Positions 15,172 to 57,441 of a DNA stretch of 60,000 bases are shown here, one piece after another. How positions within the stretch are numbered: the stretch's first letter is position 1; every line of letters starts with the position of its first letter. The stretch covers positions 16,184,001 to 16,244,000 of the forward strand of contig NC_087250.1 in the NCBI RefSeq assembly GCF_037042905.1, in the 5' to 3' direction. Position numbers and translations under genes: made by a program. This DNA is from Lytechinus pictus. Lineage: Eukaryota. The notes under the pieces were generated by a model. The model was not told the DNA's origin and ran no database searches. It saw only the letters and a list, made by a program, of their open reading frames with translations.

Positions 15172-15205
<34 letters not shown>

Positions 15206-30200: not shown

Positions 30201-33200
30201 TTGTGGGCGATCAAAAATTATTACATTTGTGGGTAAAGTAATGAGTTAGTCAGTAGTGGGTTAGTCATGACTTCGTAGGAGACGGACGTGTTTCAGCGAG
30301 CTCCTCAAACTCTACAGTTATGTGAGGAATACACCGAACAATCTTCAATGAATTTTTAGACATGAGCCAAGGAAAAAATAGCTACAACCTACGGAAACAA
30401 ACTGATCCAAAGAAATCCGCAAAAATCTCAAAATTTTCGAGCAAAATGGAATCAACTCCCACCCCATCGGTCAAGAGAAAGCCCCCAAAGCTCCCATCTT
30501 TGACGCCAGACCCGCGAAATAACGATCACGTGACGAATGACCCGCCGAATGCTGACCGATCGCCAATCATCGAAGCCATTGGGGAGCTAAAAACCATGTT
30601 CACTGGATTGTCTGTAGAAGTAAACAAAGTGAACGCTAAACTTGATTGTGTGATTGACGAACTTAATGCCATCAAACGTGACCTTTCTTCTACCAAGGAG
30701 TCCGTCTCCGAGCTTAAAGTAAGTGTATCTCTTGCTCATGATAAAATAACTGACATTGAAAATGATGCCATTCCATTACTCAAAAGTGAGATCGACAAAA
30801 ACAAGGAAGACATGGAAACTAAACTGAATTTACTAGAGATACATGATAGAAAACAGAATTTACTGTGCTACGGAATCCCAGAAAGCAAACCTGAAAATAT
30901 CTTTGCTGTCGTTCAAGACATATTTTGTCATTTTCTAAGGGTATCCCGAGAAGAAGCAGCTAAGATTCCTATCTCAAATGCTCATAGGATACCATCGACG
31001 AACCGCCCTAAACAGTTCGGTGGAAACCGCAACGTACCCATGGCCGCTACGCCAGATCCCATCATCATCCGCTTCGTGAGGATACCGGACCGTGATCGCC
31101 TCCTCAACGCTTTCGAACGCCAACCAAGACGACCTCGATCAGATCACACCGATATACAGACGCCGGCGGACACCCCGACCGACGCCCATGCCACACCCCC
31201 TTTTGGATACGCCGCCGCAGCATCCGCCACCACTCCCGAAGACAACCCTGCCTTCTCCCGCGTCACCATTCGCACAGACCTCCCGCCCAACCTGAAGAGG
31301 GAGAGGGGTCGCTTAGCTTCCATAGCCTATAATCTTCGGCGCGAGAAGAATGTTTCGACCAGAATAAGACTTATAGGAGCCAAGCTATTCCTACAAACAC
31401 GAAAGATAAGCAGAAACGGAAACCCCCATCAAACTACATGGAGCAACTGGTCACCCGCAACGTAAATCAGACTGGGGAGTTATCATAGACAGAGTTATCA
31501 CAGCAACCGACCAAAAAAACACCTCCCATCACAAGGTCCACCTATATGCGTAAGTTCTACATACAATGAAATATCATGTTTATTATACAGTTTATCTCCC
31601 CTCCCTAGAAAGTTAAATATATCTTTATTTGAAGCGGTAACCATTTTACCCCAATAACACATTTCTAATGTCCCCAAATCTGTCTTAAAACCGTTTCAAC
31701 CATTACAAGTTTAATAAAATAATTCACGAAAGTAAAATGCATTTGTAAATCGGGCTTTTCTGCCCCCCCCCCCGAACCCATCAATACAGGTTGAATTAGC
31801 GTATTCTATTGTTAACAGAATGTTTTTGCTACTTGTCATCAAAAGGGGAAATGTGTATTAAGTAACATGTAGTGCGTGCTCTGTTCCAAAATATCTTTTT
31901 TTGAAAGAAAAACAATAATTAACAAAAACTGAACAAGAAATGAAACGTCTAAGTGCAGTTTTTATGCCAAAGTTGCTGTAAAATGCAAAGCGTTAATCAT
32001 TTCGTTGACATAGCAATACGTTCGACCATCCATGGGTATTTTCGTTGTTGACAATACTTAAAATAGATCAAATGGTATAAAGCACGAAATATATGTAAAT
32101 ATTCAAGAAGACCGAATAGAAAAAATGTGCATATTCTCAAAAATTGTGACAGATAATATAGCCATTTTGTGTGGATTAAATCGTTTGTGCGTTAGAGTTT
32201 TAACGATGTATTTCCTCAAACAATCTAATTCACCCACCCTTAAAAGGGGAGAAAATCGGTATTTTTCTCGAAAATATTTAAATCAACGATAGAAATACGA
32301 TTGGAAATAAATTTTGTTGACAACCATGTATGACTTATCTTTCGTCAAAGTTTATTTAATAAGCCAACATGCAAGACACGCATTACATGCATGAAACAGG
32401 TCAAGAGCAGAACAGAGAAATATCGTTTTGTTTTTTTGGAAGCATGCTCAATTGACTTACTAGTAATATCTTTTGATTTGATTGAAATCGTTCCTGAATG
32501 ATAATTGAGCGATTTTACTCAATGTTTTAAAACAGACTGAATTGCTCAAAGAACTAATCGGTATTGTTCTTTTACATTACACCAACGTTGTTTTCAATAG
32601 AAAAACGGGTATGCAATTATCTTGACAATCGTGCATGTAATGCTTCCTCCCAAAAGTTTCGTATTTTTCTTATTGTTTCTTTTGCTTTATCGTTGTGAAT
32701 GAAATCGTTCCCAGCAAAAGTTGAACGATCTTTACTCGAAAAGAGTTAAATTGTCCATGACCTAAAAGGGGCAATCGGCATTTTTTTTTTTTTTTTTTTT
32801 TTTCCATTTACTTTTCAAGACAGTGTTGCATTGAAAATAAACACGGCAATCCAAAGATTTGTTAACGATTGTTTGTTTTCCCGCCAACATGCTGTCTGTG
32901 TTGTAACAATATGAATCAGGTCAAGAATTATAGTGTTATGTTTTGTTTTTTGTTTTTATTTTTACAATAAGACTATCAGGGTTACGCATTTATCTTTACA
33001 ACCATGACTGGTAATGCGTGTTATCCCTCTCAAAAAAGGGGGAAATCGGTATTTTCCTGGAAAGTATTTAATTCATCGTTAAGAAATTTATTTTGTTGAC
33101 AACTATGTATTACTCTGAATTCTCGTCAAAGTTTATTTAATAAGCCAACATGCAGGACACGCATTACATGCATGAAACAGGTCAAGAGCAGATCAGAAAA

Positions 33201-36200
33201 ATATCGTGTTTTTTTTTTTTTCTTTTGGAGCATGCTCAATTGACTTACTGGTAATAACTTTTGGTTTGATTGAAATCGTTCCTGAATGACAATTGAGCGA
33301 TTTACTCAATGTTTTAAAACAGACTGAATTGCTCACAGAAGTAATCGGTATTGTTCTTTTACATTACGCCAACGTTGCTTTCAATAGAAAAACGGGTATG
33401 CAATTATCTGGACAATCGTGCATGTAATCCTTCCTCCCAAAAGTTTCGTATTTTTGTTTGTTTCTTTGCTCTATCGTTGTGAATGAAACCGTTCCCAGCT
33501 AGAGTTGAACGATCTTTACCTGCAAAGAGTTAAATTGTTCATTATCAAAAAGAGCCAAACGGTATTTTTTTCCTTTTACTTTTCAAGCAAGTCTTGCATT
33601 GATAATTAACACGGCAATCAAAAGATCTATTAGATCGTTTTCGATTGCTTGTTTTCCCGCCAACCGGCTGTCTGTGTTGTAACAATATGAAGAAGGTCAA
33701 GAATTGTAGTGCTTTCTTACAATAATACTCAATGTTAATGCTTTGAAAAGAAATCAGGGTTGCACATTAATCTGACAACCATGTCTGGTAATGGGTTTTT
33801 TCCCGCCAAAATGTTGTGAATGAAATCGTTCCAGCTATAGAGTTGAACAATCTATACTCGAAAAGAGTTAAGTTGCTCATTACCCTAAAAAGCCCATCGT
33901 TATTTTTCCATACAAATTTCAAGCCAGTGTTGCATTGATAATTAACACGGCAATTCAAAGATCCAACTCGTTAATGATTGTTTTTCCCCGCCAAAATGCT
34001 TTCTGTGTTGTAACAATATGAATAAGGTCAAGAAGTGTTTTTCTTACAATAAGACTCAATGTTAATGCTTTGAAAAGAAATCAGGGTCGCACATTAATCT
34101 GACAACCATGTCTGGTATTGCTTTTTTTTTTTTTCCCGCCAAAATGTTGTGAATGAAATCGTTCCAGCTATAGAGTTGAACAATCTATACTCGAAAAGAG
34201 TTAAGTTGCTCATTACCCTAAAAAGCCCATCGTTATTTTTTCCATACAAATTTCAAGCCAGTGTTGCATTGATAATTAACACGGCAATTCAAAGATCCAA
34301 CTCGTTAATGATTGTTTTTCCCCGCCAAAATGCTTTCTGTGTTGTAACAATATGAATAAGGTCAAGAAGTGTTTTTCTTACAATAAGACTCAATGTTAAT
34401 GCTTTGAAAAGAAATCAGGGTCGCACATTAATCTGACAACCATGTCTGGTATTGCTTTTTTTTTTCCCGCCAAAATGTTGTGAATGAAATCGTTCCAGCT
34501 ATAGAGTTGAACGATCTTTACTCGAAAAGAGTTAAATTGCTCATTACCCTAAAAAGCCCATCGTTATTTTTCCATACAAATTTCAAGCCAGTGTTGCATT
34601 TATAATTAACACGGCAATTCAAAGATCTAACTCGTTAATGATTGTTTTTCCCCGCCAAAATGATTTCTGTGTTGTAACAATATGAATAAGGTCAATGATT
34701 ATAGTGTTTTCTTACAATAAGACTCAAATGTTAATGCTTCGTAAAGAAAAAGGGTTACACATTTATCTTGACAATCATGCATGTCTGGTAATGTGTTTTT
34801 TTCCCGCCAAAGTGTTGTGAATGAAATCGTTCCAGCTATAGAGTTGACATGGTTGAACGATCTTTACTCGAAAAGAATTTAATTGCACATTACCCAAAAG
34901 AGCTAAACGGTATTTTTCCTTTTAAATCTCTTTTGTTCTATTTGATCTCTTCTGTTAATATATATTCTAGGAGCTGAAAAGTAAAACAGTTGATATCAAT
35001 GCTTTGTTAGTTTGCCCCCCCCCCCATGCATATCTTCGCTTTTTCTCTCTGTTTTTGTCCCCCCCCCCCCCGTTTATTCTTACTTTGGTCTCTAAATTTG
35101 ATTTGATTGTCTGGTGTCCCTTCACCCGCACGTAGTGAGTATATATACTTTGACACACCGTATAGTTTCCCCTTGAAAAACAAAACTGGTGTATTCTATC
35201 ATTCTGTAATTTAATCCTTTCTCAACTGCTCGCTGATTGATGCATGGTCACGGCTTTGTCTTATATTCTTTATTTTCTGAGACTCGTTTGAGTTTATTTG
35301 AATTATCTTCTGTTTGTTTGTTGATCTTTTGTTTGTTTGTTTGTTTTTCCCCCTTTCAAGTCATTACTCATTGTATGCTTGTATTTGCTTTATCTACGTT
35401 GTTTATACGTTTAGTCGTACTGACAAGCTTTCTCCCAGCCCCCACAGCTATTATATCCTTTTCCCCTTAGGTGGCCAATGATTACCCTTTATGGCAAATA
35501 ATGTCACCCCTGGTACTGACCTAACTAATGACGATTTCTTGAATGTCTTTCAATCATTAATGCATTCCCACTCTAACGATCGCGACAGTGATTTTGTTAA
35601 TAATATGATCTCTACTCTCAACTCAAATAATTTGGATTTTGTAGCCCCTTTTGATGAAAATGAGCAAGAACAGGTTAACCCTTCCTCTTACTACACTGAA
35701 AATCAACTTGTTTCTCACTTTTCAAATCTAGATAAGACTGTATTTTCAATGTTCCACACTAACATTAGGAGTATGAATAGCAATTTCGAGTGCCTACGTA
35801 ACCTTCTTGACCATAGGCTTAATCTAAATTGTTCTGTGATCGGCTTAACCGAAACTTGGCTTTCAGATACACCACACTCATTATATTCCCTACAAGGTTA
35901 TGACTTAATAGTGAACAATAGACCTAACAGACAGGGAGGTGGCGTTGCGTTATACATTAAAACTGACTTTAATTATACTAAAAAAAATGTCTTAAACCAT
36001 GTCAATGACTCCATAGAAACAATTTTCGTAGAAATTGAATTCGTCGGTAGAAAAAATATTGTAATTGGAATAATATATCGACCTCCTAATTCCAGTCATA
36101 ATGATTTTTTGTTAAATCTCGAAAACATTCTTTCTAATCCAATTTTACGGAGTAAGGATTGCTTTTTAATGGGTGATTTTAATGCTAATCTACTGAAATA

Positions 36201-39163
36201 TGATTCTGATTCCTTTGTTCAGGAGTTCTATGGAACATTCCTTACGTCATCATTTATTCCACTTATATCTAAACCAACTCGTATTTCGGAACACTCCTCC
36301 ACTCTAATAGACAACATATTTACCAATATGCATCCTTTTCCACACGCTGGAGTGGTCATCTCTGATATCACTGATCACTTCCCAATATTTGCAAATTTCC
36401 AAATTTTACAGCAGACTCAACAACCTTCTAAAATATACACACGATTTTTTTCTGAGGGCAATATTAACACATTCAAAGAAAGACTTGATGAACTAGACTG
36501 GGGTAATATTTATAATATGACTGACGTAAATAATTGTTTTAACGATTTTATGGATAAATTGACTAATTTATTTAATGAATGTCTCCCGGTAAGACAATCT
36601 AATCAGCGTAGTAGGAAAAGAAGCCCCAGATCCCCATGGATCACAACTAGCTTACTCAGATGTATAAATAGGAAGAATAATCTTTATCTGAAACATAAAG
36701 CAAAGCCAACTGTGAATAATAAATCAAGATATTTAAATTACAAAAACACACTGACAGGGCTATTACGAAGAGAAAAAAAGAATTATTTTTCTTGCCAGTT
36801 CACGAAATGTAAAAGAGATGCAAGAAATACATGGAAAATTATAAATGAAGTATTGAATAAACATGAAAAGAAAAATGCTGTATCTAAGATAAAAATCGAT
36901 AATAGAATTATTGATAATGTACAAGAAATTTCCGATCACTTTAATAACTTTTTTGTAGAGATTGGCCCAAATTTAGCCAGTAAGATACCAGACAGTAACA
37001 AAAGTTTTCATGAATATTTACCTAATCCTAACCCAAATTCTATGTTTTTTGCCCCGGTGGATGAAAGTGAAATTCTTGATATAGTTAATAATTTACATAG
37101 CAAACGGAGTTGTGGACATGACGGTTTTGATAATGCCATAACGAAAAATATTATTTCTTGTATTATTGAACCTTTTACTTATATTTGTAATTTGTCTTTG
37201 AGAACTGGTGTTTTTCCAAATAGAATGAAATTAGCCAAGATAATACCGATTTTTAAAAAAGGTGATCCTCTTTTAATATCAAACTACAGACCCATATCAT
37301 TATTATCAACTTTTTCAAAAATATTAGAAAAGATAGTTTTTTCACGTACAATTGACTTTTTGAATAATAACGAAATTCTAACTTGTTGTCAGTTTGGTTT
37401 TAGAAAACATCATAATACATCTCATGCTATCTTGTCCCTAATCAACAAAGTAGCTAACTCTTTTGACAAAGGCTCCCATACGATAGGAATGTTTTTAGAT
37501 TTTTCTAAAGCGTTCGACACAATAGATCACCAAATTCTTTTATATAAACTGTCACATTATGGTATTAGAGGTATTGTGTTAGACTGGTTCCGTAATTATT
37601 TACACGAACGCCAACAATATGTTAGCATTGAAAATCATGCGTCACAATTGAGAAATATTAATTGTGGTGTCCCTCAGGGTTCCATACTTGGCCCGCTGCT
37701 TTTCATACTTTATATCAACGACTTTAACAGATCCTCGGACTTATTTTCATTTATTATGTATGCAGATGATACCAATCTTTTTCTTTCACACTCAAACATA
37801 GAAACTCTTTATCAGATAGTCAACTCCGAATTAAACTTTGTGTCAACATGGGTTAAGGCCAACAAATTATCCCTAAATCTAGAGAAAACTAATTTCATGC
37901 TATTTAGCAACACATTTAATGAACTACCTTATCCAATTCTAATAGATAACATACAAATAAAACAGGCAACTACAACAAAATTTTTAGGAACATTCATTGA
38001 TGACAAACTTTCATGGAAATATCACATTAATAATATATGTAAGGTAATATCTAGAAATGTTGGTGTAATAAATAAGCTCAAATGGGTATTCCCCCCTAAC
38101 ATTCTGAAATCTTTATATTCAACATTAGTTTTACCCCACTTGAATTACGGAATACTCGCCTGGGGAAATAGTGCAACATATATGTTAAATAAAGTATTAC
38201 TCTTACAAAAAAAAGCTATGCGGATCATAAATCAGGTTGATTTTAGACATCATACAGACGGTCTTTTCCAATCAAACAATACTCTAAAAATTTACGATAT
38301 TTATCGATTGAATCTTGCGATTCTTATGTATCAGTATAACAACCAAGGGTTACCCTCCATTTTTAACAACATATTTCGAGTAAATAATGAAATTCACCGT
38401 TACCCAACTAGACAAATCAATTTGTATCATCTGCCAAGGACTCGTACAGCATTTACACAAAACACTTTTATATTTACTGCCCCCAAATTTTGGAATTCCC
38501 TTCCCCTAAATACGAGAGAGAGCTTAAGTATAGGTACATTTAAATTTAAGGTTAAAAAATCACTACTTGCCCCCTACTCACAACAAACCTCAATTACTTG
38601 ATAATCATACAGATCCCACCTCCCCCCGACCCCTTTCCCCTACTCGCTCTTTCTTATTTGTCTTTTCCTTATCGTTTTTCTTGTCCCCCGTCCATTGTTC
38701 TGTTTGTTTTGTTTTGTTTTGTTTGTTTGTTTTTTGTTATATCATCCATGACCATGACCATGCATTTATCTTCCATATGTTCAGCGATTTTCCTACTATT
38801 TATGTTCCCTTATTTCGAATGATCATTTACCAAGTTTACATTATATTACGTTATTTACATTATTTACGAATTCGAGAGATCAGCGTCCAACAAGCCTAGC
38901 TTCTCAGCTGGTCTCTCTTTTCATTTCACCCCTTTCTTTTTTTTTTAACATACACAAGAATACCCAAGCTTTTAAGAATGTTAAGTTTTATAAAATGAGG
39001 ATATATAAGTATCGTATTTTGTTCGTATAATTACCAAATCTTTGCAAATGTATAAGGTCGTTACTTATGTTCATTTTTGTAATTGTATTTATGTATTTGT
39101 ATTTATGTATTTTTGACTTGTATGTGAAAAATGGAAAGAAAAGAAATGAAATAAATCAATAAA

Positions 39164-39223
<60 letters not shown>

Positions 39224-42200
39224 GTTATTACATTTGTGGGCGTTATTACATTTGTGGGCGTTATTACATTTGTGGGTGCAACAGGGGGGGGGGGCAAAAT
39301 CATGAATCAATGTTCCAAAGCCGCACTTGAATACACAAAACAAACAAACTCACTCCCACACATACACCCTCACACATATGTATATATACATATATATATG
39401 ACTCATGAGAAAGGGACACATATCTCACCAACAAATTAATGCGAGCGCGAAGAGCGAGCTGAAATTTTTTAGTATACTGACCTGAAAGCAGGAAACAGGT
39501 ATCTGTTAACTGTTTGTAGTAACTCATGAGGAGGATACATATCTCACTACACAGATAATTCGAGTGCCGAGAGCGAGCCGAAATTTATTTATGTTCTGAA
39601 CTGAAAGCTTGATATTCTAAGGATTTTGGTACCAATGATTAAGATGGGTATTTAAAAGAACAATAGATGCGAGCGCGAAGCGCGAGCTGAAAATTTTGAT
39701 ATTTCGATCTGAAAAAACTTGACAGTTTCATGGACTTTTTAATAAAGAACAAGACATATATCCAACAAAAGTTTATTGCAAATCGAAGTGGGATTTATAT
39801 TGAGGTTTAGAAAACTGGAACGGGACATTCTATTCACCTATTTAATCATGAAAAGTATGGGTTTCTGCCACAGAAATGATGCGAGCGCGAAGCGCGAGCT
39901 GAACTTTTTTATATTCCAATCTGAAAAGTGGACATTTTGAGCACGATATTAAATAAAGAACGCTTGCTGATTTCCATGTAACATTACAATCTTATTTTAT
40001 TTTTGCACATGGAGAATTATTGGGGGCAAAACGACCTGTTTGCCCCCCAATATTTCCATTGGTGAGGCGATCGCAACCCTGCCCCCCAGGATCGACGCCT
40101 CTGAATGTTTATATTATCATAATTATATTATGTGCAGGTATATGATGTTCATATGTAGGGATATATTTTTTTATGATATATCATTTATAGTCCATGTAGG
40201 GATGTAATTTTTTATATATTATTATATTCCATGCTGTATGCAGGTATAATGGTGTTCACCCATAATTTGAATCCCGAATCGGAGGTCACTGATTACGAGC
40301 TTCCATACAGCTACCCATTCATTGTGACGTATGAGAGAGCGTCATTAACACAGATAGCTGCTGCAGCTGACATCAGTGGAGAATGCACGCAATTTATTAA
40401 GGTATGACTAGAAGAAAATAATCACCTAACCATTAAATAAATCAGCTGATAATGTAGACAAGATAGCAAAATAAATGAATAAAGATTGATTGAAGAACAA
40501 GCTTGACAAATATCTGAGCGTAAATGGTTTGCTTCAAACATTTATTTTACACACGATTATAGGTCTGAATAGTAACTTTACATGTTTCAATTTTGAAGGC
40601 CGTGCAGAAAAAATTAAGCAATTAGACTTACTTACACACACGTTCGCAAACAGAATGGCGTCTAGTCATTACAAAGATATATAATAAAGTTGAAAGACAT
40701 TATTAGATACGAATGAATGGATAAATGATCGAATAAAGGATCAAAACATGAAGAGGAACCAAAGACATAAGATGAGCTAAAATGGGGGAAAAATGTACAA
40801 GAACGAAAGACGAAAAAAGAAGATACAATAGAACAGATAGCATAGAAAATAGATGAAGAGTCAGGGGAAAAATGAAGATTTCTAAATTTTTCAATGATAA
40901 AATGAATCTCTATATCATATAGGCCTACTGCTTATAAAACTACAACATAATAAATAAGTTAACAAGCCACTATTAACGATTGCACATTCAACACTCGAAA
41001 TGATTTAAGTACTTTCTCTATTGTACTTACTAATAGCTTGGGTGTACGGAGGTTGCACTGACTGGCTATACAGCATGGTATGACAGGCATGGTGATCAAA
41101 TGAACTACTGGGGAGGTGCCCCGGAAAACAGCAGCTCGTGTGCCTGTGGGAGCAAGGGTATGATTAACAGACTTTTCTATTTGGTACACTGTAAAAACTG
41201 TGGTGTTAAACTGACACCAGTTGGTGTTAATAGAGGACCACATCCTGAGGTGTTGAAATTACACCCTAGAGATTGAACACAACACTAAAGAGTGTAAATG
41301 TAACAACCACATGTGTTGTTATAACACATATAGGTGTTAAACTAACAACGTCAATTAACACCGGTGTAAAATAACTGGTGTGGTCCTCTATGTACACCGG
41401 TTAACACCACAGTTTTTTGCTGTGTACAATATTAAGTAGAATGGTGAGGTAAGTATGTGACTGGTCATGCGCATTTCTATTACGTAAACTAGGAATTACA
41501 TGAAATTCATTGATTTGACGATGTAATAAAATAACCACTAACTTGACTACGCTATGAGTAACGTGCTATTAAAGTGCTGCTCCACTACTGTACCAACATT
41601 TTATTTCATGAATGACATGATATCGCGATTAGTCTTATATCAATAAAAATATTCAATTAACTGTCACCACATAATTTATTATGTGAAGTGAGCGAGCAAA
41701 TAATTAACAATGTCAATACAAAAAATGCGATAAATTTGTCATTTTATTTACAATTTCCACATTTTTTTCCAATTGTATTTTGTTTTTCTCTCTCCTGTTG
41801 TTGGTCGTGGAACTTTTTTAGGGTCATCGCTCCTGAGCCCCCCATCATCTGTATGCCTTTGTATAATACATAACCCGTATAGCGAAAAGAATTCGATAAA
41901 TTGTAGGTTTAGATGCTTTATTTGTAAATAATAATGAATAAAGAAATACATATAAAGTGAAAAAAAAATCCCACCGTTGTAGATTGAGAGAGAAAAAAGT
42001 AACCATGTTTTTCAGGTTCTTGCATAATCAGCAGTTTGCCCTGTAACTGCGATGGTAAACTCAAGTTTGTACCGTTGGAGGACAGTGGTAATATTACCCA
42101 GAAGTCATCATTACCAGTTAGTGAAATACGCGTCGGGGACACGGGAGGTAGTTTTGAAAAGGCTGACGTCACTCTAGGCCCACTGTACTGCAAAGGCGAA

Positions 42201-45200
42201 GACCCACAATGTAAGTATCTATGGAACGCCAGATGCAACAAAACGCGTGAAACACATAAAGTTTCACAGACTCGTGCCTAAAAGAGTACGCACGAGTAAT
42301 TCAAAATCTAATTCACCTGTGTGTTTTATCGTAGCCCAGTATTTAGCAGATTTGCAACATCAATGAATATTAAAACACAAAGTAAACAGGTTTTCTTAAA
42401 GTTGCTTAATATTATTACGCTTCATGTTGAGAATCAAATGATGCGACGACGCGGATACCAAGTGTTGAGTCATACGAACAAATACGGAGGTAAAACAAAT
42501 CATACCTTCTTTCATATATCATTTAGCCATCGTAATGGATCAGTTTGAATTCACTATCCTGACCAATACAAGAACTCCTGGACTTTTCATAGCAGAACTC
42601 GTAACAGCAAGCGCTCAGTTGTGTGCTGAGGCGTGCATCGCTCAGGATTCCTGCCAATCACTCTCATACAATAAAGACAATGGTACGTGTATTCTAAAGG
42701 AACGTGGAGACCCGATTACGTCACGGATTAGAGACGCCGCCTGGAATGAATACCTGCGAATATGTGAGTACATTAAAAAGCACAAAACTCAAATCGACCC
42801 GTGTTTTCAAAACTATTTCAACTTATTTATTCATTTATAGAAATACACAATATTGTGTAAACAATTTTTATAAATTTCGTGTAATCAATGCCAATGTATT
42901 ATGAATCAATAATAAAGAGGGTCAGTAACAAGTCAGGGAACAATGTTCTTATGTCAGCTATTCATGTTTTAAAGAAAGAAGATTCACCGCCCTTTCACAC
43001 GGTTAAAAAAAAATCGGAATTTGAATGATGATTCCAGAGAAAAATAAGGCTAATGACGATTTTTTTAGCACGTGTGAAACCAAACTCGAATCACGAACGC
43101 CAATCAAAATCACGAATTCATTTTCTACTTCGGAGGTGAATTCCAGTTCAGTTTCGATCACTCAAATTACGGTACGAATTTTACGTGTGAAAGGCTTGAC
43201 CTCCAAAACACCTTTGAGGGGCGGAGCTTACGTGTTCTTTCAAGCACTTCCGTATGTAATACAATTGTCATGCACTCATTGTCGTGCACTGACAAGTCAC
43301 CATTGTCATGCATTGACTAGTCACCAAGGACACATAGGGCCTACCGCCTTCGCTCTGGAATTCGAATTCAAATCAGTTTTCGAGTGAGCGTGTGAAAGGT
43401 CCGATGATTCGAAAGACGAATTGCATTCATCGTTACAATGATGATTCAAGATTCACGTGTGAAAAGACCCTAAGAGCATTTCGATACTGTACATCATATA
43501 TTATGTTCGAACCTACATGTATCTTAATAAGGGCCCGCCGATGACAGGTCAGTCAACTGTGATTTCGGAAAAGATGGGTGTGGCTGGATTCAAGACTTAT
43601 CCGACGATGCTGATTGGATAATATCAGACGGTAACCAAGGTAACGTGAGAAGGACTGGCCCTCTTCGTGACCACCGTGACACATCAGGTTAGTTTAACCC
43701 CACCCTGTCCCGTTACGAAAAGCGTAGCATTTTATCGTAGGAATGAATATGATATTGGTTGGTCGTAAAAATCAACTGTATAAATTCTATTGCACTATGT
43801 CAAAGGCCACATGAAGTGTATTTGCTCGTGAAATTGCTTAAAGACAAATGTTTCTTAAATTAATAGTAGATATGTATGATTTTACAACAAAACAACATGC
43901 GAGATAATAGTGTAAATTGCTGTTACATGAAATAAAAGATTATACAGAATTTGCTATTATAATAGCTTACATGGTTTACATAGCATGTAAATGAGTTTCA
44001 ATTTATCTACTAGAAAACTATTATCTCTCCTTACAGTCAACCAACACAACACCATGTTTTCTTTCAGGCCGCCATTACTCTGGTATCAGATCAGTACGGC
44101 TCGTTGACGGACCAACACCGCGCGAAGGACGAGTCGAGATATTCTACAAGGGCCAATGGGCGTCCGTCTGTGGCATCACGTTGTCTCTTCCGCAGGGCAA
44201 TATTTTGTGCCAATCCCTGGGATTCGGTGACGCGCGTCACGTGACTGCCAATGCATCGTACGTTCAAGGATCGGGTGAGATGGTGGTTGATCTACAGTGT
44301 AATGGCGACGAGGGTGATATCAGGGAATGCCCTATGCGAGACATAGGTCATACCGCCTGCCCACACACAGACGAAGCTGGTGTAGTATGTTCCCCAGGAG
44401 GTCAGTATGATGGATTTATATCAGTGTTTGGTGTTGACAGCTCGTGCTGAGTGTATTTTACACAAACCTAAACACCGAACTTACAAAAAAAAATATGCTC
44501 ATGGGAATTTGAATAGGTATAACGGGTGGTGTTGTACCTATTCCTATATAACGGATGGTGTTAACCATATGGATTTTTTCCCCCAGTGTCACAGCTAAAA
44601 ACTTAAGACGATGCTGATGCATCGTTCAGGGAGGCAGTGTAGCTCAGTCGGTTAGAGCGCCTGTTCCGGATAAGATCGTAGATCTCAACGTGCGTGGGTT
44701 CGAGTCCCGCAGCATGCCGGAAGACGTCTAACAAAAAACTGATGCTAGCGTTGTGTGTTAGCGTGCCTCACCGCTGTGTTCAGTGCGGGTGTGAATGCAG
44801 TTGGAAAACACTCCGTCCATCGGAAAGGACGCAAATGTTGGTCCCGTGTATAGGAGAGTCACAACCTATGCACGTTAAAACCAATACACTATTCGTCAAA
44901 GAGTAGGGTGTTCACCCGGTGTATTGCACCTGCCGGTCCCCGGTACTACAATACTGCAAGAATCTTCAAGATTGAAGGAGGCAGTGTAGCTTGAAGAAGA
45001 AGAAGAAGAAGAAGAAGATGCTGGACTGACTTGACCAAACGAAACTAATCAGGGTTATTAATGATAATGCCCCTGTTTAAAAGAATAAACATATACCACC
45101 ATGATTAAAAAAATTGGACACTGCCTACTATCAGTTTTAAAAATAGAAAATAAATTGAAATTGAAATTGAAAAATATGGAAATTTGTAAACATGAGCGTC

Positions 45201-47675
45201 TCTGGAAATTCAGAGGTCAGTATGCGCAACAATGATATAATATAAACTTAAATGACACTACCAAGGAGTTTAGAATACACCTTTGCTCTTTCACAGTGAG
45301 ATTGACCGGGGGTGTCACTCCTAGAGAAGGCACGGTAGAGTTACTATACAACGAATCTTGGGGTTCTATTTGCCACACCAACTGGGATATCGACGATGCC
45401 AATGTAATATGTCGAGGCTTAGGATACGACAGAGCCCTCAACGCTGTTGGATCAGCATTCTACACTGAAGGATCTGGTGAGATTCTCATAGATGATGTGT
45501 CTTGTACAGGGTCTGAAGAGAGTGTCTTTGACTGCGGACATTCACCAATCGGAGAAACAACATGTGTCCATGATGAAGATGCTGGTGTTGTTTGTTCGTA
45601 CGAAGGTAAATCCATTATCATGTTAATTTGCAAGTACCTCATACGCTTATAGCGGTTTTGTGGGTCTTTGAGTTAAGAAAGAGAACCCTTGTTCAGTTTA
45701 CTTTCATTATTAATACTCAAATGGCGAGGTGGAATTATATATATTCAATCTGAGACGACGTGGTTTCATTAAGCGTGGGCATTTCTTTTCTTTTCATACA
45801 ATAGGACATTGACCTCCTTATTTTTTTTCAATTAGCTTCTTTGCTTCATTGACAGAGGCCTAATGTAGATACCGAGAGCAGTGTCGTGAATCTTTGAGTT
45901 GGGAAAGGGTATACCTCAATATTTTGCTGGATCCAGTGTACCATTCTTCACTTTTCATCATCAATACTCAAATTAAAAGGAAAAATTAAAGAGAGTCAAA
46001 TTCAAACAACGTGATTGCATTGATTTTGGTTAAATCGTGGATTTCTTTTTAAATCAAAGTAATGAATTCCCTCTGATTGATAGTGTAATTATATAACCAT
46101 TGGCAATTTATTATTTATCATTTTGTTTGGTAGGACTTCGCATTTCCAGCTCCGTATAATTGGAACATAAACTTTTTGGTGTCATTTACCATGCTGCGAT
46201 TTATTATTTCGGTTTTCGAATCACCCGTATTTCACTGCCCAGGAATGTTCAATCTGTTTCAGAATGTGGACATCTATTCCATAATAAATTATGAAAAATG
46301 AACGGGTGTAGGTGTTACACTGCAAAAACTCTGGTGTTGATTTTACACCAACCCGGAATCTATATAACTCCACACCAGAGAAGTGTTAAACAACACCAGT
46401 TTGGTATTGGTCTTACACCAGATAGGTGTTTATACAACACCAATTAGTATTAAAACAGCATCGGTTTGATTCCAAACTAATGTTTCAATACTTCTGTGGT
46501 GTGGACATATATAGATTCCAGGCTAGTGTTAAATCAACACCGGAGTTTTTGCAGTGTAGGCCCGAGTTATAGATTTCAAGCTGACAATGTTTTCTTTTAT
46601 TGATATGTTACTAAACCACTCTATACCTTCTTTAATATTTTAAATAGATGATTCAGAGTTCTATCGTCTTAAAGGATCGTATCTCTACATCGACTCCAGT
46701 GAACAACTCTCTACAGCAAATATCACCAGACTGCAAAGTCCAATTATACAAATACCCGTCGCAGAGGGCGCTTTATGCTTCAGGTTTTGGTATTACATGT
46801 TTGGTGAAGATGCCCAATCACTGAGAGTGTATGTCAATGATGTTGAGGATGGTGTTGCTAGTGGAGAGATAGCTTTTGAAGTAAGTGGTAACCATGGTGA
46901 GCAATGGATTATGGACCAGGTAAGTCGTGACGTCATAATGACACTTTGGTTTAATATCCTTTTGGTCTAATTGCAGCATGAATTGCAATTTAATTTTTTT
47001 TTTTAGATTTTCAATAAATCAAACTGCAAATTTGGCATTTGCGCGTGTTTTCCTTCAACGGGCCCCTTTATTTTGTATATCATTATCAAATACCGATTTA
47101 ACTCCAATGAATTTCGGCTATTATGTTGATCGTGATTTCAATGATAGCTTGTGCGGGGAATGTAAACCTATATATGTGAATACTGATAAGATTGCCACCC
47201 TTGACTAGTTTATTGAATTCTATGGACTGAATTAAGGAGAAGCATTGTCCTCTTTTGTTACCTTTGAAACTATCAGAAAGAAAACATTCAGTGCAGATAA
47301 CCCTTATGAAGCGGTACCACAGTCTAATTGACGATTCTTTGACTTCTATGATGTACGAGATCGATCGTTTAGCTCTAGCAACCTTAGAATTTCGTATTCC
47401 TCTCTGTGCATGACGTATTTTATCCATAGTTTGACATCGTTGGAAATGATACAGCTCCGTTCACTGTAACAATCGAGGCTGTCACAGGTGTTGGTGTTAA
47501 TGGTGACATAGCAATCGATGATATTGAAGTACTAGCCGGAAGCTGTCCTTACGGTAGGCCATACCTTCATATGTTATCTTTATTTAGTTTGTTTTTATTG
47601 CTTTTCACCTATGATAAAGTGTATATACATGCATATATATATATAAATATATATATATATGTATAAACATATATG

Positions 47676-47738
<63 letters not shown>

Positions 47739-47769
47739 ACTACTATTACTACTACTACTACTACTACTT

Positions 47770-47824
<55 letters not shown>

Positions 47825-50800
47825 CACTACTACTACTACTACTACTTCTACTTCTACCACTATTGCTACTGGTAGTAGTACTTCTTTTTGCTTTAAATAT
47901 TTGGTAGTAGAGGTGGGTAGAAGTAACGACTAAAATTGTAGTCAACCTTATTTGTATCAACAGCATGTTTTGGCTACCTCTCAATTCACAGAACACTTGA
48001 GTTCTAATGACTACATTCATCTGCCTTTTATTGCTTAATCTCTGATTTATATTACCTTTTCCAACGCAGAACCGATGTCTTGTGACTTCGAAGAGACGTT
48101 CATCTGTGGTTTCATCCAGGATGAAGAAGATAATGCTGATTGGAGGAGAGGAAAGGGTGACGTCATACAGGACGATGAGAAACCTCCTTATGACAACACC
48201 TTCCATGATATCCATGGTAAATTTCGCCGGTTATGTTTTTTGAAATTATGCGTAACGAGAATATTTTAATCGGTCTACATTTAAATGGGTAATATCATCG
48301 CTTGCTCTAGGTGGCCTAATGTGGACAGTCACGGATCCGGGGGGGGGGGGGGGCACGTGGCCCCCCTTTGAGAAGCAAAATAAAAAAATTGTACTGTAAA
48401 AATTGCCATACAAACAAAAGTGTGCCCCTCTTCAAATTGAACCCCCCCTTTTTTGTTTTGCTTGTCAATTTTTTTGGGATACGAAATATCCTTTATTTGT
48501 GGTTGAAAACCTTTTTATTTTGCTTGTCAATTTTTTTTCGGGTACGAAATGTCCTTAATATGCCCCCCCCCCCTTTTGGAAAATCCTGAATCCGCCTCTG
48601 AATGTTGATGTGGTTAAATGTACATTTTTGACGCATTCCTTATTAGTGTACATGGTACATCTTTATAAACATGATCCACTAAACTGTGAGATACCGCAGG
48701 TATCCGTTTTCGTGCCATGACTTTTCTAAGAACAATATGATTCCAAAATGCCGTTTAATAAAATCACTTCTTGGTCTCTTGTTCGATTAATAAATTATCT
48801 GGTGCAACTTTTTCGCCTTTGATATCGATGCATTGCAAGTTTAAGTTGAATCGTTGTTTGTTTTATTTTCCTTTTTTCACCGCCTAAATATATGAAGAAA
48901 AAAAATCATTGATGTATACTCGGCAGGTTAAATGATAGAAGGATGTCATCGTGCAGACCCCAACCCCCCCAAAAAACATAAAGATGATGAGACAAAATAG
49001 TTTATCAAAATTTACACGCTAGGTGTAAATTTTTTTATTTGTAAAACCTTAAGCTGAAATTATTAATAGAATATATGAATTAGGTAATGATAAATTTGAA
49101 TGTTGATGTGATTTTCCCGCCTTTTCTTTTTTTATAGAATATTTTTATGTTATTTGAATCTTGTTGTCAGGATACTACATGTACTTCGATTCCAATGAGA
49201 CGGTTCAAGGGTCAACCGCTCGCTTGTGGACCCCGCCCTATACATTCCCCGGTCAACATTGCCTCACATTCTTCCACTTTATGCACGGAAGTGAGATAGG
49301 CAGTCTGCAAATTTACGCTATTGAGTCAGGGGGGACAATTAGTGGTAGCTCCCCCGTTTGGGCTCGTATTGGTCCGCAAGGGTTTGAGTGGATAAAGGCT
49401 GCAACTACAATTGTGGCTGACTCGAATTTTCAGGTACGAAGTTCATCGTCAATGTTTTTTTGCAATGTCAAAACGTCAAATTTTTACACTAATATATTTT
49501 GGAAATGGCTTTTTTTTTTAAATAGTGTCTTGACTAACTTTTTAATACTATTGTAATAAATGTCAAACATCGATCCTTAACGTTTACTCTCGCTTTGTTA
49601 TGTTTCTTAAGTATCATGTATATGTATGTCACGCATTTTACAGCACCACAGAGGTTGTCATTAGAAAGCATTTTCCATTTGCATGCCCTATTCTCTAATC
49701 TGAATGAATAAACAATAATTTTATAACTTAAATCAATAAAAAAACTGAATAAAATGATTAAAAAAGAACAGATGAAGGATTTAAAAAGTTATGAATAAAT
49801 TAATGACATACGGATTGAATTGTCACCTTTTTTGCAGGTTGTTTTTGAAACAACAAGTGGAGGACCTACATATTCCAATATCGCCATTGATGACGTCACC
49901 ATTACAAAAGGCCCCTGTGTACGGTCGCTGCAAGGTTTGCATTAATGTTATCGTCAACATGGTCAATGATGATGAAATATTAATATTCAAAACGATGACT
50001 AAATACTTCGAGTAAAGAATTTGAAAGTTCGTTGGTTTTCTCCTAAGGGATGGATGTGCATCGTGTGTGTGTGTTGGGGAGGGGGGGGGGGGGGGGGAGA
50101 AATAGGGCCTATCTGTAACGCACTTCTATGTTCTATGTAGAATTGGAATGATATTAATTAAGTTTTGATTTGTATTATATATGTCAGACAGTTAAAGTAA
50201 GCAGATGAAATAGTTGACAATACTTGCGTCATTTCTTGAGCATGTGTTACAGCTTTACAACCAAAAATGAATTTCCTTATAATATTTGACGCTTTCTTCA
50301 CCTTTATACAAATGTATCACAAAAGGGACGGATAACCGGCAATATACCCATACATATTTTTCGCTCTTTTCTCAGATGAAACGAGCACCACAAATACCGG
50401 ATGCAGGAAGGCTATCGGCTCTCGGTTAGGAGTAGAAGATGGCCGGATACCCGATTCGGATTTCAAAGCTTCTTCGGACAATGGCATAAGTGAACCGTAC
50501 ATGGCAAGGCTTAACAGCTACGCCACCAGCGGTGGTTGGATGCCAGCTGACGGAGAACAAAGTAGCTGGATTGAGGTATCAATTCTCTTTACATCCACTT
50601 ACTATTGTGAATTTAGAATGACATTACGTGTGCAAGAGAAAATAAACTAAGTCAGTTAATACGCAGGTGGAGCTTTTTAAGGATCCTCCTTACTCTCTTG
50701 GCGTTAAGAACACCTCAACTTCGAAATCCGATTATCATGATTATGATTTAAACAAAACAATTGCTTTTTTTACGTAGTTAACGAAGATTGACTGCTGTAC

Positions 50801-53800
50801 TGCAGAGATCACGTTACAAAGTGCTCCGATTTCGGTTTGATTTTGCCGGGCTAAATTAAAAATAATAATAATGAGCGCCACCTATCTAGAAATATTCTAT
50901 TCCGAGGCACGTTATTATTATTATTACCCCGGCTTTAGCTCGAGCTGCCTTTCAGCGCTCATGAATTCAAGGAATTAATCTTGCCGGGTACTCATTCACC
51001 TTACCTGGGTTAAGTGCAAAACAATGTGGAGAAATTTCTGGCTGAAGGAAATTACGCCACGGCTGGGATTACGCTTGGATGTGGGCACAAAAGCTAGATG
51101 GACACACACAGTTACACGTTTTACCCCATCATGAAATTAAGGAGAACCATCATGTCTCTAGTCATTCTCAATTGATTTCATTCTTAGGTTGATTTTGGTC
51201 TTCGACGTTGGTTGACGGGCGCCCTCACACAAGGTGTGTTACAGTCATCAGAATGGAGTACATTGCTATCATTCTCTTATATCAACGAGAGCAACGGAAG
51301 ATCGTTCATTGCTGAACATGAGTGTAATTTACCGGGAGGAAAGGTATGGTTCTAAAGTACACAGCTTCAACACTGTGTGAACACATGGTAACCATGTGCA
51401 CGGCCACGGTCATGACGTTGCATGGAACATAGTATAGGGGGTGGGGCGCATACTGAAAGTAAACAATAGTGTGCATATTGTCAGCTGTCAATAAATAACA
51501 TCAAGATAAAGTATTATGTGAATGATATTTCTGTTCAAGTTCATTATGGTTGCGATAAATATCCCACTCATACATATGTCATCAACAGCATATTAGATTT
51601 GATTTCTTGTGTACATCTTTTCAACCTTTTCTTGTACAATTTCAGTTTCTTAAAATTATTTAAATTAAAGAAAAAAAGGAGCTTTAGTTACTTGATTTTA
51701 TTCAGTGTTTTCTTTCGGTCATTCTGCTTTATCCTGATACGTGGCAAGAATTGAATTTTTAATATGCATCACCAAATAAACGTTTGGTCTTCTTTTTCTT
51801 TCAGATTTTTCGAACTAACTTTGACAGCAATTCAATAGTGACTACCCTGTTTCCCAAGCCAATACTCTCAGCAAACATTCGAATCCACGTTGAGGGCAGC
51901 CATTCAAACAGCGCCCTCAGGTTTGAAATACTAGGTAAGATGAACACCCCTCGAAATAAAAACCAGTATACCGTTTTATAGAGACTCGTGATACATGTTA
52001 TAATAACAAATGCAAAGTTGTTATAACAAATTTACCACCAGCCAATCATAATGATTTCAGTAGCATTCAACTGCTATTGCAAATTTTATATTATAACACG
52101 GGTCGTGTGGTCCAGTGGATAGAGCATTGGACTCATAATCGCAAGGTTGTGACTTTGAATCCCCACTCTGCCATTGTCTCCACTTTGATAAAAAGGCCCA
52201 AGAGTAATATCTGTCGTCTATAAGGTCACGCAGCCACTATGACTGATTAACCTAGACGTAAAATGACTCCTAGGTAATTGGTTATATACCAGCTTGGCGT
52301 TTACAAGCAAAATGCTGTCCTGTCGAGTTCTTACGCGAGTTACCATAAACAGAAACAGAAACAAGTTTTAAGACGGCCCTTGAGCACCCTGGAGCTGCTT
52401 GCATAGTGGGTAAAACTTGGTAAAATTGACAACATATTCCAATTTGAGCCGAGTCATAGAGAAATATAAATATGTAAATATAATTGGATAAATACGCCGT
52501 TGTATATTTATATCTGATTGTTTTGAAGGGCTAAAAGTGGCTGCAAAAAGGCAAGTTGATCTCTGTGTTGGAAAAGTATCACTCTATAATTTTATACTAT
52601 TATTTGCAGCGATCAAATGGTATGTAACTTAATAACAATGCTTATCATGAAACGTAACAATGCAATCAGAATTACGGGCTCCAGAAGAAGGGGAAAATTG
52701 GCTAGCTATGTCGAATTTCAACGAAACTTTCATGATACGAGACCTTGATTATTACGATCGTGATAACTAATACTGTTACACATAAAACCTTCCGAATTCT
52801 TCAGCAACAATGACGAACGCAACTTTCTTTAATGATCAATACATGAGCTCAACTCATCTTGATATTGATTTTGTTGTCTTGAAGGGATGCAAGATATCGA
52901 CTGTAATGATCTGTATGTAAGTGGGCACACAGAGAGTGGCATGTATACTATTAGACCAGCTGACGATGATCAGTCGTTGAGGGCGTACTGCGATATGGTT
53001 TCTGATGAAGGCGGTTGGATGGTAAGTTTGATTTCTTTTTAAGAAATGGACACAGCAATCTAATTATCAATTGAACATACTTCAAATGATCAGTCGAGTT
53101 TAAGACAAATGAGCACTTTCCGTACGTACACACGATCGACGAATCAGAGCAGTTGTTTAGAGGATTACTCTGCCGAATTGTTACTGATACAAACTATTAA
53201 AAATATGTCTATCAATTAACTATTTGGGGTTTAAGTTCCCTTATTGTAAGTGTTTTAAAGCGATGTAAATATTAGGGAAAATAGATTTTCTTTCATTTTA
53301 TTGTCCTTTCCCCCATTTGTTTCTTGGGGGGAGGGGGGAGTTAAGAAGAGAGTTGCCACTCATATCATAAAGATTAATGCTTAACAGATTACGTTAAATT
53401 TTCAAAAAAAGATTATCAATTGCAATTTAGTTGAAAATCTTGGATAGTAGGGTCTAAGGTTTACAGTTGGGTGAAACAGTAATTAATTTTCATGTTCATG
53501 ATTATTGAGTTTAACCTAGCGCATGCAAAAATGAATTTTCAACCGTTATTGAAATAACATTTAAGTTTCTAATCTTTTCTAATGTTATGAAAAATACCAG
53601 ATCTTTCAGCGTCGAACGAATGGTAAAACATCTTTCTCCAAGACCTGGTCGGATTATGAAAATGGGTTTGGCGCCCTGACCGGTGAACACTGGATAGGAC
53701 TCAAGATTCTTACTAGGATCTTAGCTCAAAGGCCATATGAACTTCGTATTGAACTGGAGTACGCTAACGGGACCATGTATGTAGCCGACTACCCGGGTTT

Positions 53801-56800
53801 CTCGGTTAGTAATCGCTCAACCGGATATCGGCTTAATATCGACGAGCTTGAAGGCAGTTCAGGTAAGAATAATATTTATATTAAGTAATGAAGAATATCC
53901 CGGACAATACCGAGTAATGTCGACCGCGAATGCCGAGCAAATGATTAAGAGAAATAGAGCTAGCCAACCATGGGCGGAAATCTATCTCGAAAGGTAGGGG
54001 GGACAACGGGCTGATCCAGCTAGCCTTGGGGGGGGGGGGGGGGCAAAAACATTTTCAGCCATATGTTAATCCCCGATCGGCCGCTCGAAGGTAATTTTTG
54101 TCTGTTTCATTGAAGGAGTAGTCCTTATGGTCACTTTTTAGCTTTATTCTTATAAATCAACATAAATATATGATATCATTGTCCTTATTTATATAATGCG
54201 AGCGCGAAGCGCGAGCAAATTTTTTGGGGAAAATTTATGTATTTTTTCCCTAAAATTTGAACATTTTGGGCAATGTTTGTTATCCTGAAAAAGATGTATA
54301 TACAACTAAATATTTACCACGACCGCGAAGTGCGAGCAGAGGTTAACTGGTGGAAAAGGTACCTGTTAAAGACTGCTTGCAATTAGCCATGAAGACGTTA
54401 CATATTTCAACAATCAAATAATGCGAGCGCAAAGCGCGAGCTGAAATCAGTTTTTGAATTGTTTACCTAATGACTGGAAATTCTAAGCACTTTTTGTAAC
54501 TTAAACATATAATAGGTATATAACTAAACAATTGATGCGAACGCGAAGCGCGAGTGGAAAGTTGTGAGATTTAGACCTAAGAACGAGACACTCTATTCAT
54601 GTTTTGTAAATCATGAAAAGGATGAGTAATTGGGGGTCTTTCTTACACCCGGTCCTTACATAAATAAAGCGAGTGCAAAATGCAGCCAGAAAATGTTCAT
54701 ATACGTTTAATTTGAATTGATCGAAAAGGTACTTGTTAAGGACTGCTTGCACTTAGCCATGAAGACGTTACATATTTCAACAATCAATGCCAGCGCGAAT
54801 CGCGAGCTAAAAAATTTTGACATTTTTTCAAAAGAATCGAAAATTTTAATCAATTTTTGTAATCGTGAACAGGGTAGCTATATAACTAAACAATTGATGT
54901 AAGCGAAGCGTGAGCAGAAAAATTCGAGATTTAGACCTAAAAACGGGACACTCATGTTTTGTAAATCATGAAAAGGATGAGTAATATGGGATCTTTCTAC
55001 ATTAATAATGCGAGCACAAAATTTTTGATATTGTAATCTGAAACTGGATAATGATTTAAATAGAGAACAAATTGAATATCTGAATAAACATAAGCGTTTT
55101 TCAGATTTAGAACTAGAATCTCGGCATTTTACACATCTATCAGCGAGCGCGAAGCGCGAGCTTAAACTTTTTGATATTCTGATCTGAAAAAAAAAAGAGT
55201 CAATTTCAGCTATATATTTCATGCACTTTGTAGGAAAATTGTGAGGTGGATATGGATCACACTTAATATTTCATTATTATTTGAGTTTTGACATAGGACC
55301 GGGACATCCTTATAGGACAAGTCATATGAAAATGATGACTATCTTCCTATTCCTCTTACTAAGCGCGAGATGAAACAAAAGGGACAATTTAATCATTAAA
55401 TTTATATCTTATTTATTAACGCATTTTGCGGGCGAGAAATCTGATGATATTATGGCCTGAAAACTGGACATTTCAAGCACTTTTGTAATTAGGAATAGAA
55501 TGCATCAGTTAAAATATTTTTAACCATCAATGCGAGCGCAAATCGCGAGCCAAAATCTTTGATAAACTGTCATGAAAATCAATATTGAGACATACATAAA
55601 TCGCCAATCAAAATACAATTAGCACTATCTGCTACGTTTTGACAATCAGGCTTGAAAAGGGATATTTTCAATCTAAATGGAATACACAAAAATAATAGGT
55701 ACTGAATAAATCGAATTTTGCGAGCGCTCAGTGCGAGTAGAAAATGCCAATATTCAGACCATAAAGCTGTAACTTTTATAGATCACTTTTTTTAAAATCC
55801 GTTTGTAAATCACACAAAATAATGAAAGTTCGATTTCCGAGGTGAAATGTATAATGTATATTGACTTCCAAACATGATATTTAAGCTCCATATTGAAAAA
55901 TCACCTAACAGACAATGCGAGCGCGAAGCGCGAGCGAAAATTTTATACAGTGACATGAAAGATTCTTTCCAAGTTTTCACCTCATCTTATTTTATTCACT
56001 CTTGAAAATTTGACAAGCAAAATAAACAAAGGTTTTCACCCAAAATGTAAGGTCATTTAGTCCAAAATACATGTATTATTTCGAATGTGAATGATGCATT
56101 TTCTCCATCATAAAAGACCAAAAATAGTAGGGGGGACATTTGATATTGTGTCCCCCCTACTATTTTTGGTAGGGGGGACACGTCCCCCTGTCCCCCCTGG
56201 GATTTCCGCCCATGTAGCCAACAATGCCGATTGGGTATCGCTATCCTTGACTACTCATTTGACAATGTCATCTACTTTCAACAATTCCTGAGAATGTTGT
56301 TGCATGACATAGTGGCATGTATCTTTATTGAGAGTTTGGTAGGACAATATAATTATGTTTACCTTCGCACGGGCTGTATGAGTTATATTAATGATACATT
56401 AATGAGTGTATAATTCATCGATATCGATAGCTAGTATCGATCCATGCGTGTTACGTTTTTTAAATGTACGTTCCTCACCTAGAATATAACAAATTTTATT
56501 AACAACCTTTGTTGATGAAATAAATATGTCATGGGCATGACTGCTTTGTGTTTGCAACCGCCCTGATTGTAAGGATGCTATACTTGAAAAATCAATCACC
56601 TTGTAAATAATTTATTCACCTTGACTTTAAAATCAAGTACATGTGGGTCTTCTTATTTCGTAGCTCATATTTCATAACATAGCTCATTGCCAGTAAATAA
56701 AGAAGCAAGGTTTTTATCGATGTGGACGACAAATCAATCTATTATTATAAAAGAGATTGTTAAAATGGCGTAAAATCAATATTAAACAAACTTTAACTCT

Positions 56801-57387: not shown

Positions 57388-57441
<54 letters not shown>

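Follow-up and report, generated by a model that had tools for sequence, protein, structure and literature searches.

The window analysed here, a 60,000-nucleotide stretch of the Lytechinus pictus genome (assembly GCF_037042905.1, contig NC_087250.1, positions 16,184,001 to 16,244,000 of the forward strand), holds one large host gene on the plus strand, 9123..58793 or about 50 kb, as delimited by tblastn of the protein models P0001, P0003 and P0002 on the window and by Pfam matches in plus-strand open reading frames (ORFs). Its domain order begins with the signal/N-terminus, EGF, SRCR, F5/8C, MAM1, MAM2 and a fibrinogen/COLFI-like domain and continues with PAN, MAM3, MAM4, F5/8C and a C-terminal fibrinogen domain. 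The subject of this report is MAM3, which is interrupted: two exons, each coding for a complete SRCR domain, lie between its exon A and its exons B and C, and they are retained in the spliced transcript (Table 1). The proteins closest to MAM3 exon B are the L. pictus NCBI models P0001 (1146 amino acids) and P0003 (823 amino acids), both 100% identical over the exon, followed by P0002 (XP_011664368.1) of Strongylocentrotus purpuratus with 76%. Further models came from a cluster look-up, namely P0126 (1388 amino acids) of Lytechinus variegatus and P0125 (1890 amino acids), an older and longer S. purpuratus model.

Table 1. Exons encoding the MAM domains, the two inserted SRCR domains and the preceding PAN domain; positions refer to the window.
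Feature	Position	Strand	Length and phase	Evidence and remarks
MAM3 exon A	43532..43687	+	156 nt, phase 1-1	PF00629 positions 1-41 of 158, E 2.4e-6
SRCR exon 1	44068..44400	+	333 nt, phase 1-1	six cysteines; PF00530 E 4.3e-23; AG/GT; in X1 and X19 contigs
SRCR exon 2	45297..45605	+	309 nt, phase 1-1	six cysteines; PF00530 E 9.3e-30; AG/GT; in contigs
MAM3 exon B	46648..46919	+	272 nt, phase 1-0	PF00629 positions 41-124, E 1.6e-14; third MAM cysteine (ALCFRFWYY)
MAM3 exon C	47430..47553	+	124 nt, phase 0-1	PF00629 positions 126-158, E 1.3e-3; fourth MAM cysteine (GSCPY)
PAN exon	42526..42762	+	ends on codon base 1 (phase 1)	PF00024 E 7.6e-9, tblastn; directly upstream of MAM3 exon A
MAM1 exons A/B/C	13351-13491, 13820-14061, 15583-15706	+		spliced alignment
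MAM2 exons A/B/C	16016-16159, 17170-17417, 17928-18045	+		spliced alignment
MAM4 exons A/B/C	48070-48216, 49171-49433, 49838-49934	+		spliced alignment

The five exons of the MAM3 region have AG/GT at all ten splice sites and, when joined, an open frame of 397 codons, which, together with the Pfam matches, makes the bounds and phases given in the initial annotation exact to the base. MAM domains are characterized by four conserved cysteines and by the motifs C-x-W, D-W, G-P and D-H. In MAM3, this set is distributed over exons A, B and C and is kept in three species; exon A carries the first two cysteines (NCDF, GCGW) as well as the CGW, DDADW, GP and DH motifs, and a full-length PF00629 match is attained solely by both MAM3 halves together. 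The inserts both classify as SRCR domains by a near full-length profile match (PF00530 positions 2-100 of 100 in either case) and their cysteine number, with one exon equalling one whole domain. Three residues (SPG) separate the last cysteine of the first SRCR from the first strand of the second, and at the borders of the insert MAM3 has linker residues (a run of 13 after DH, and EDDSEFYRL before KGSYLY) where its sisters have 0-5 residues.

When MAM3 was spliced in silico without the SRCR exons, it was recognized as one domain covering profile positions 2-158 with 120.8 bits, compared with 92.6 bits for MAM2 in the same run. At the level of sequence, the two halves thus read as one complete MAM domain. 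Exon B aligns to solved MAM structures from the strand directly after the A part, and in these structures about 5 positions separate the residue matching the last of A from that matching the first of B (46 versus 52 in 8yt7_A; 202, then the B part, in enteropeptidase), so that the insert of ~214 residues sits in a short loop.

The uninterrupted sister domains MAM1, MAM2 and MAM4 show the phases 1-1, 1-0 and 0-1 in each case, as derived from exon lengths, and spliced alignment bears out the plan of three consecutive exons that had been ascribed to them. Because the same intron divides A from B in all three sisters, the SRCR pair is located exactly in the MAM A/B intron. For a scan for hidden exons, a MAM profile was built from 256 domains (6 from the gene's own family plus a sample of 250 out of 982 full-length MAMs of multi-MAM proteins) and run with all filters off on 590 six-frame ORFs of at least 12 amino acids between 38700 and 50200. 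It recovered just the six known exons of MAM3 and MAM4, with independent E values (i-E) from 9e-19 to 1.1e-6, the next match being on the minus strand with an i-E of 2.2. At the sensitivity of this profile scan of the 590 ORFs, there is neither a missed MAM A exon in 45605-46648 nor a relic B or C exon after 43687. The initial annotation had seen no other A exon in that interval and had named a missed A exon combined with lost B and C exons as the finding that would speak against it; the former statement holds and the latter constellation is absent in the scan.

This result bears on the notion that no insertion occurred at all and that an ancestral MAM-SRCR-SRCR-MAM protein lost exons B and C of its first MAM and exon A of its second, leaving halves that stem from two different MAMs. 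The introns contain no relic of lost exons, the two halves together fill one profile with neither overlap nor gap, and two independent deletions would be required versus one insertion. Although both losses would be frame-neutral (B plus C lead from phase 1 to phase 1, and A is 1-1) and although P0125, which is without the A exons of MAM1 and MAM4, illustrates that such forms are at least predictable, we consider this course of events quite unlikely. The comparison between exon loss and insertion is an argument from parsimony rather than a test, since no tree could be built on the 51 residues of A; insertion is favored by it because a single event stands against two exon losses from a MAM-SRCR-SRCR-MAM ancestor.

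Seven paralogous MAM-A loci of the same genome were inspected with 1.5-kb flanks. The A exon ends at profile positions 45-50 in six of the seven, a MAM-B exon follows within the locus in three, and an SRCR follows in none. As six of the paralogous A exons end alike, the A/B intron is an old feature of MAM genes here, and since no SRCR follows any of the seven, the insertion is particular to this gene. A 2024 survey (PMC10855680) reports one exon per SRCR domain in urchins. For the second inserted SRCR, at least 150 scored single-exon paralogues with 45-58% identity were present among 886 genomic candidates; with the best of them at only 58%, there is no recent SRCR donor, yet raw material is plentiful.

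In the reading that we favor and hold to be probable, SRCR modules were shuffled into an intradomain phase-1 intron of a MAM domain, giving rise to a constitutive domain-in-domain protein. A block of two single-exon, phase 1-1 SRCRs would have been moved by exon shuffling into the ancestral phase-1 A/B intron of MAM3; alternatively, a single SRCR may have been inserted and then duplicated. The idea of shuffling into the internal phase-1 intron, already put forward in the initial annotation, is supported by the intron position in the sisters, by six of the seven paralogous loci and by the symmetric single-exon 1-1 SRCRs, with parsimony pointing to insertion as the direction of the event.

For transcript evidence, four public runs were aligned to 42400-47590, X1 and X19 being contigs and X21 and X22 raw-read RNA-seq. 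The runs X1 and X19, labeled 'RNA?' or '?', were taken as spliced RNA because their contigs skip introns. Record 7 of X19 (1062 nt) is composed of 43540-43683, 44064-44398, 45295-45603 and 46646-46919 and joins A, SRCR, SRCR and B; as these segments adjoin within the record, all three introns were removed in one molecule. Record 2 of X1 joins 44398 to 45295 (SRCR to SRCR) and record 6 of X1 joins 46917 to 47428 (B to C). The offsets of 2-4 nt between contig joints and exon bounds correspond to the same letters repeated at both intron ends, and intron bins have zero depth except over repeats. The lack of introns in the contig is not accounted for by a processed genomic copy, as exon A has a single locus in the 812-Mb assembly, where the next best match is 55% identical. 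The junctions 43687>44068, 44400>45297 and 45605>46648, by which the gene structure was to be checked, are all seen in X19 record 7, whereas the skipping junction 43687>46648 is not among the joints listed, every listed contig piece over the interval representing the inclusion form. In the mRNA, as documented by this contig and by the models of three species, the host sequence is interrupted by complete guest domains. Since the mRNA includes all five exons, the protein reads MAM-SRCR-SRCR-MAM, and its order would be MAM residues 1-45, SRCR, SRCR and MAM residues 46-158.

These joints also speak to the SRCR exons being frame-preserving cassettes, with functional MAM3 arising mainly from double-skip isoforms and with inclusion as a minor or tissue-specific event. 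We regard this as unlikely in view of listed contig pieces that are all of the inclusion type (X19 record 7, X1 record 2), of five gene models that all include both SRCRs, and of SRCR exons that are conserved between species as much as the MAM exons. Nevertheless, the prerequisites for such a mechanism are present: skipping 0, 1 or 2 SRCR exons keeps the frame because A, SRCR1 and SRCR2 are all phase 1-1, MAM3 without the SRCRs is a perfect MAM by its bit score, and contigs do not show rare forms, the joints seen being among those listed. Mis-assembly, or two separate genes abutting in the interval, would be another way to account for the arrangement, suggested by the two overlapping NCBI L. 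pictus models, of which P0003 starts at a methionine inside SRCR1, and by the zero contig depth of the PAN exon in X1 and X19. However, one RNA-derived contig crosses all three introns, by which this explanation is largely refuted; the same order is found in two other species that were assembled independently, and the splice sites are canonical and the frame open throughout. An artefact of this kind is hardly credible, and the gene break within the interval that had been considered a refuting outcome has not materialized.

The arrangement is conserved in other urchins. In P0001, residues 702-752 match profile positions 2-52 and residues 961-1089 match positions 39-158, with full SRCRs at 755-854 and 857-957 between them. 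Using our own MAM and SRCR profiles, the order MAM 2-44/52, SRCR, SRCR, MAM 39/46-158 was obtained for P0001, P0002, P0125 and P0126. Among the 393 proteins gathered, MAM and SRCR domains are combined in five orthologous models alone (P0001, P0003, P0126, P0002 and P0125), and both SRCRs are included in all five, with P0003 starting inside SRCR1. The S. purpuratus protein is 63% identical to the window in exon A, 70% and 69% in the SRCRs and 74% in both B and C (tblastn), which lies within the range of 56-81% for the other exons of the gene. The Lytechinus and Strongylocentrotus families are separated by ~50 million years. A 21-residue motif set of exon A and its DH motif are unchanged in L. 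pictus, L. variegatus and S. purpuratus; the exon A cysteines and stretches amounting to 20 residues are identical in the three species, changes being confined to linker and loops. Such a pattern is what one would expect if purifying selection acted on a folded MAM segment. As a side observation, the older S. purpuratus model P0125 omits, without breaking the frame, exon A of both MAM1 and MAM4 (alignment columns 426-472 and 1464-1512), which could be a model artefact or could hint at skippable phase 1-1 MAM-A exons. A look-up in the ESM Atlas found nothing.

As to the folded protein, the N-terminal strands encoded by exon A would most likely pack back onto the B/C part and thereby complete the MAM beta-sandwich as a nested domain, with the tandem SRCR pair hanging from a surface loop (~5 residues in ordinary MAMs) on two linkers of ~8-10 residues. 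In solved structures, the N- and C-termini of SRCR domains lie close together, which would let the tandem pair leave and re-enter the host at one point. An AlphaFold2 (AF2) prediction of whole P0001 (1146 amino acids) from a five-row alignment gave a mean predicted local distance difference test score (pLDDT) of 34.9 and values below 50 for the A part of every MAM, and a predicted complex of MAM3-A with MAM3-B/C reached a score of 0.21 against a mark of 0.34, counting neither for nor against. A deeper alignment including whole multi-MAM and multi-SRCR proteins was dropped because, in the MAFFT output, A parts were matched with B/C parts of the MAM that came next and SRCR sequences were squeezed into MAM columns.

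It is conceivable that the halves do not refold, such that exon A would be a conserved linker or relic and B/C a truncated module, or that the halves pair between molecules in a domain swap. Here, the structure prediction outputs were unusable and lent no support to refolding, and a long insert could favor swapping; MAM domains of meprin and RPTPmu mediate oligomerization. Yet all MAM consensus residues of exon A are retained in three species, whereas a mere linker would not retain them, and, judging from the aligned solved MAMs, the sandwich of B/C would be incomplete if the A strands were missing. Taken together, we rate a failure of the halves to refold within one molecule as very unlikely.

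Several points weigh against the favored reading of SRCR modules shuffled into MAM3 and included constitutively. The assignment of X1 and X19 to RNA is itself deduced from the intron skipping of their contigs. The PAN exon (42526-42762) has zero contig depth in both, compared with depths of 3-9 for the next exons, and X1 record 1 reads 7 nt into the intron upstream of exon A; with PAN devoid of contig depth, the link of exon A to the upstream exons rests on the gene models. The depth gap may reflect a stretch missing from the contigs or transcripts that begin close to exon A. Record 10 of X19 (567 nt, depth 2.9) is unspliced through the B-C intron (46890-47457) and is a retained intron, pre-mRNA or DNA carry-over, and the raw reads of X21 and X22 comprise a few on these exons and no joints. 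An SRCR-skipping isoform could exist, since contigs drop rare forms and since inclusion alone holds among the joints listed. The AF2 model says nothing either way, as MAM1 and MAM2, although intact, have A parts with scores as low as that of MAM3. In S. purpuratus (P0002, P0125), the second SRCR has F in place of the third cysteine and is short of 3 residues, resulting in an odd cysteine count (alignment columns 1297-1303); this could mean that the insert is under weaker constraint, or that the model or the sequence contains an error. Finally, three large searches, swamped by multi-SRCR/DMBT1-like and multi-MAM proteins, found no orthologue outside Lytechinus and Strongylocentrotus, and the same searches found no uninterrupted orthologue by which the event could be polarized. 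In the comparison with orthologues suggested in the initial annotation, the L. variegatus and S. purpuratus models are both interrupted, and an uninterrupted MAM3 did not turn up in these searches. In a search with the fibrinogen-like, PAN and MAM-A parts, the 14 best non-self matches scanned were other mosaics (among them C-type lectin plus PAN and Xlink-CUB-SRCR), none of them with a MAM. The absence of orthologues elsewhere is weak evidence because the searches were swamped.

Some features of the host gene deserve mention in addition. The PAN exon is joined to MAM3 exon A in the models P0001, P0126 and P0002. The fibrinogen/COLFI-like domain is cut by a 20-kb intron (19851 to 40243) containing a long interspersed nuclear element (LINE), the ORF of which (35482-38601, plus strand, 1039 amino acids) is open and intact-looking and matches an endonuclease (PF03372) and a reverse transcriptase (PF00078). 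Together with PAN, the fibrinogen/COLFI-like domain (19714-19851, 40243-42209) forms a cassette common to unrelated mosaics, such as the C-type-lectin proteins P0265 and P0258 that match both domains, and this sharing is a further sign of module shuffling. We infer that the host protein is a secreted mosaic because of the hydrophobic N-terminal stretch in an orthologue model and the fibrinogen domain at the protein end, and the domain set of EGF, PAN, F5/8C, SRCR and fibrinogen suggests a binding or recognition protein, a role in which the displayed SRCR pair would take part. The L. pictus gene is annotated as overlapping partial models (P0001, P0003 and P0127) that bear the names 'MAM and LDL-receptor class A...' and 'neuropilin-1-like', P0003 beginning at the above-mentioned methionine within SRCR1. 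No LDL-receptor class A domain (PF00057) was matched in 178 plus-strand ORFs of the window or in the Pfam lists of P0001-P0003, so that the NCBI name of P0001 and P0003 is a similarity label and not a family assignment.

The introns around MAM3 are rich in repeats. Between the SRCR exons, outside the coding unit, lies a repeat (44620-45010) whose start looks tRNA-like by eye; its RNA depth is at least 400 in X21 and X22, with the first mate mostly on the minus strand and many molecules ending at 44642. ARAGORN found no tRNA in this repeat, which probably represents a family of short interspersed nuclear elements (SINE) transcribed elsewhere. Two further intronic stretches, 42922-43617 and 46228-46575, show contig depths in the thousands with many variant joints and are dispersed repeats, the first abutting the acceptor of exon A. 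The intron after MAM3 exon C contains, at 47600-47930, long microsatellites with TA/TATG and trinucleotide units.

Nested extracellular domains are known from the integrin alpha-I domain within the beta-propeller, the beta-I domain within the hybrid domain and the laminin L4 domain inside an LE module. What integrin I domains and laminin L4 have in common with MAM3 is a host module whose sequence is broken by a whole, self-contained one; this guest projects from a loop of its host and would do so in MAM3, too. In the present case, by contrast, the host is a MAM and the guest a tandem SRCR pair, and the exon record is intact, with 1-1 guest exons in a phase-1 intron of the host and three uninterrupted sibling hosts. 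Nesting as such is thus not new; the SRCR pair within a MAM is a clean case of class 1-1 shuffling into an intradomain intron. According to Patthy's phase rules, class 1-1 modules shuffle into phase-1 introns with the frame kept. The same phase logic applies here, except that the receiving intron lies inside a domain and not between domains.

Among individual proteins, the heavy chain of enteropeptidase (8h3s, 8zi4) likewise combines MAM and SRCR and, among solved structures, matches exon A best (E 0.0025), but its domains are arranged in series and its MAM is uninterrupted (A part 162-202, B from ~207 of one chain). MALRD1, in whose type LDL-receptor class A repeats alternate with MAM domains, has several MAMs in common with the host gene, which, lacking LDL-receptor class A domains, does not belong to the MALRD1 type. 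The sea urchin SRCR multigene and DMBT1-like proteins possess the same six-cysteine, one-exon SRCRs; those are tandem SRCR arrays, whereas the host gene combines MAM with SRCR. Neuropilin, after which P0127 is named, shares F5/8C and MAM, and the NRP1 MAM matches exon B; unlike neuropilin, the host gene lacks a CUB domain and showed no membrane anchor, and EGF, PAN, SRCR and fibrinogen domains are present in addition.

A 2026 survey of insertion architectures (PMC13114784) reports insertions in 20% of multidomain proteins; in a term search of its main text, there was no occurrence of MAM, SRCR or scavenger. In our literature searches, no account of SRCRs interrupting a MAM, or of these gene models, was found, in line with the initial annotation, which knew of no such description; the domain-architecture table of PMC10855680 may include the S. 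purpuratus gene.

Accounts of exon shuffling usually have new modules placed between domains. In this gene, modules appear to have been shuffled into a domain, with the full record preserved: a phase-1 intron of the host, three uninterrupted sister MAMs as internal controls, symmetric single-exon guests, a spliced transcript and retention across urchin lineages. For annotation, the case is a warning that 'partial MAM, SRCR, SRCR, partial MAM' can correspond to one intact domain rather than to two fragments. It also offers a natural test case for the tolerance of a beta-sandwich adhesion domain toward an insert of ~214 residues in a five-residue loop, and for whether phase rules alone can let mosaic immune-type genes explore nested architectures. 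More tentatively, and with considerable doubt on our part, the split MAM might be an obligate conserved scaffold, and the displayed SRCR pair might act as a rigid recognition head on a MAM loop, or else the insert might drive the A strands onto the B/C part of a second molecule and so constitute a domain-swap oligomerization switch. In a broader sense, and at the same level of doubt, intradomain introns might be regular targets of shuffling in urchin genomes with their hundreds of single-exon 1-1 SRCRs, and nested domains might be a recurrent source of immune-type receptors.

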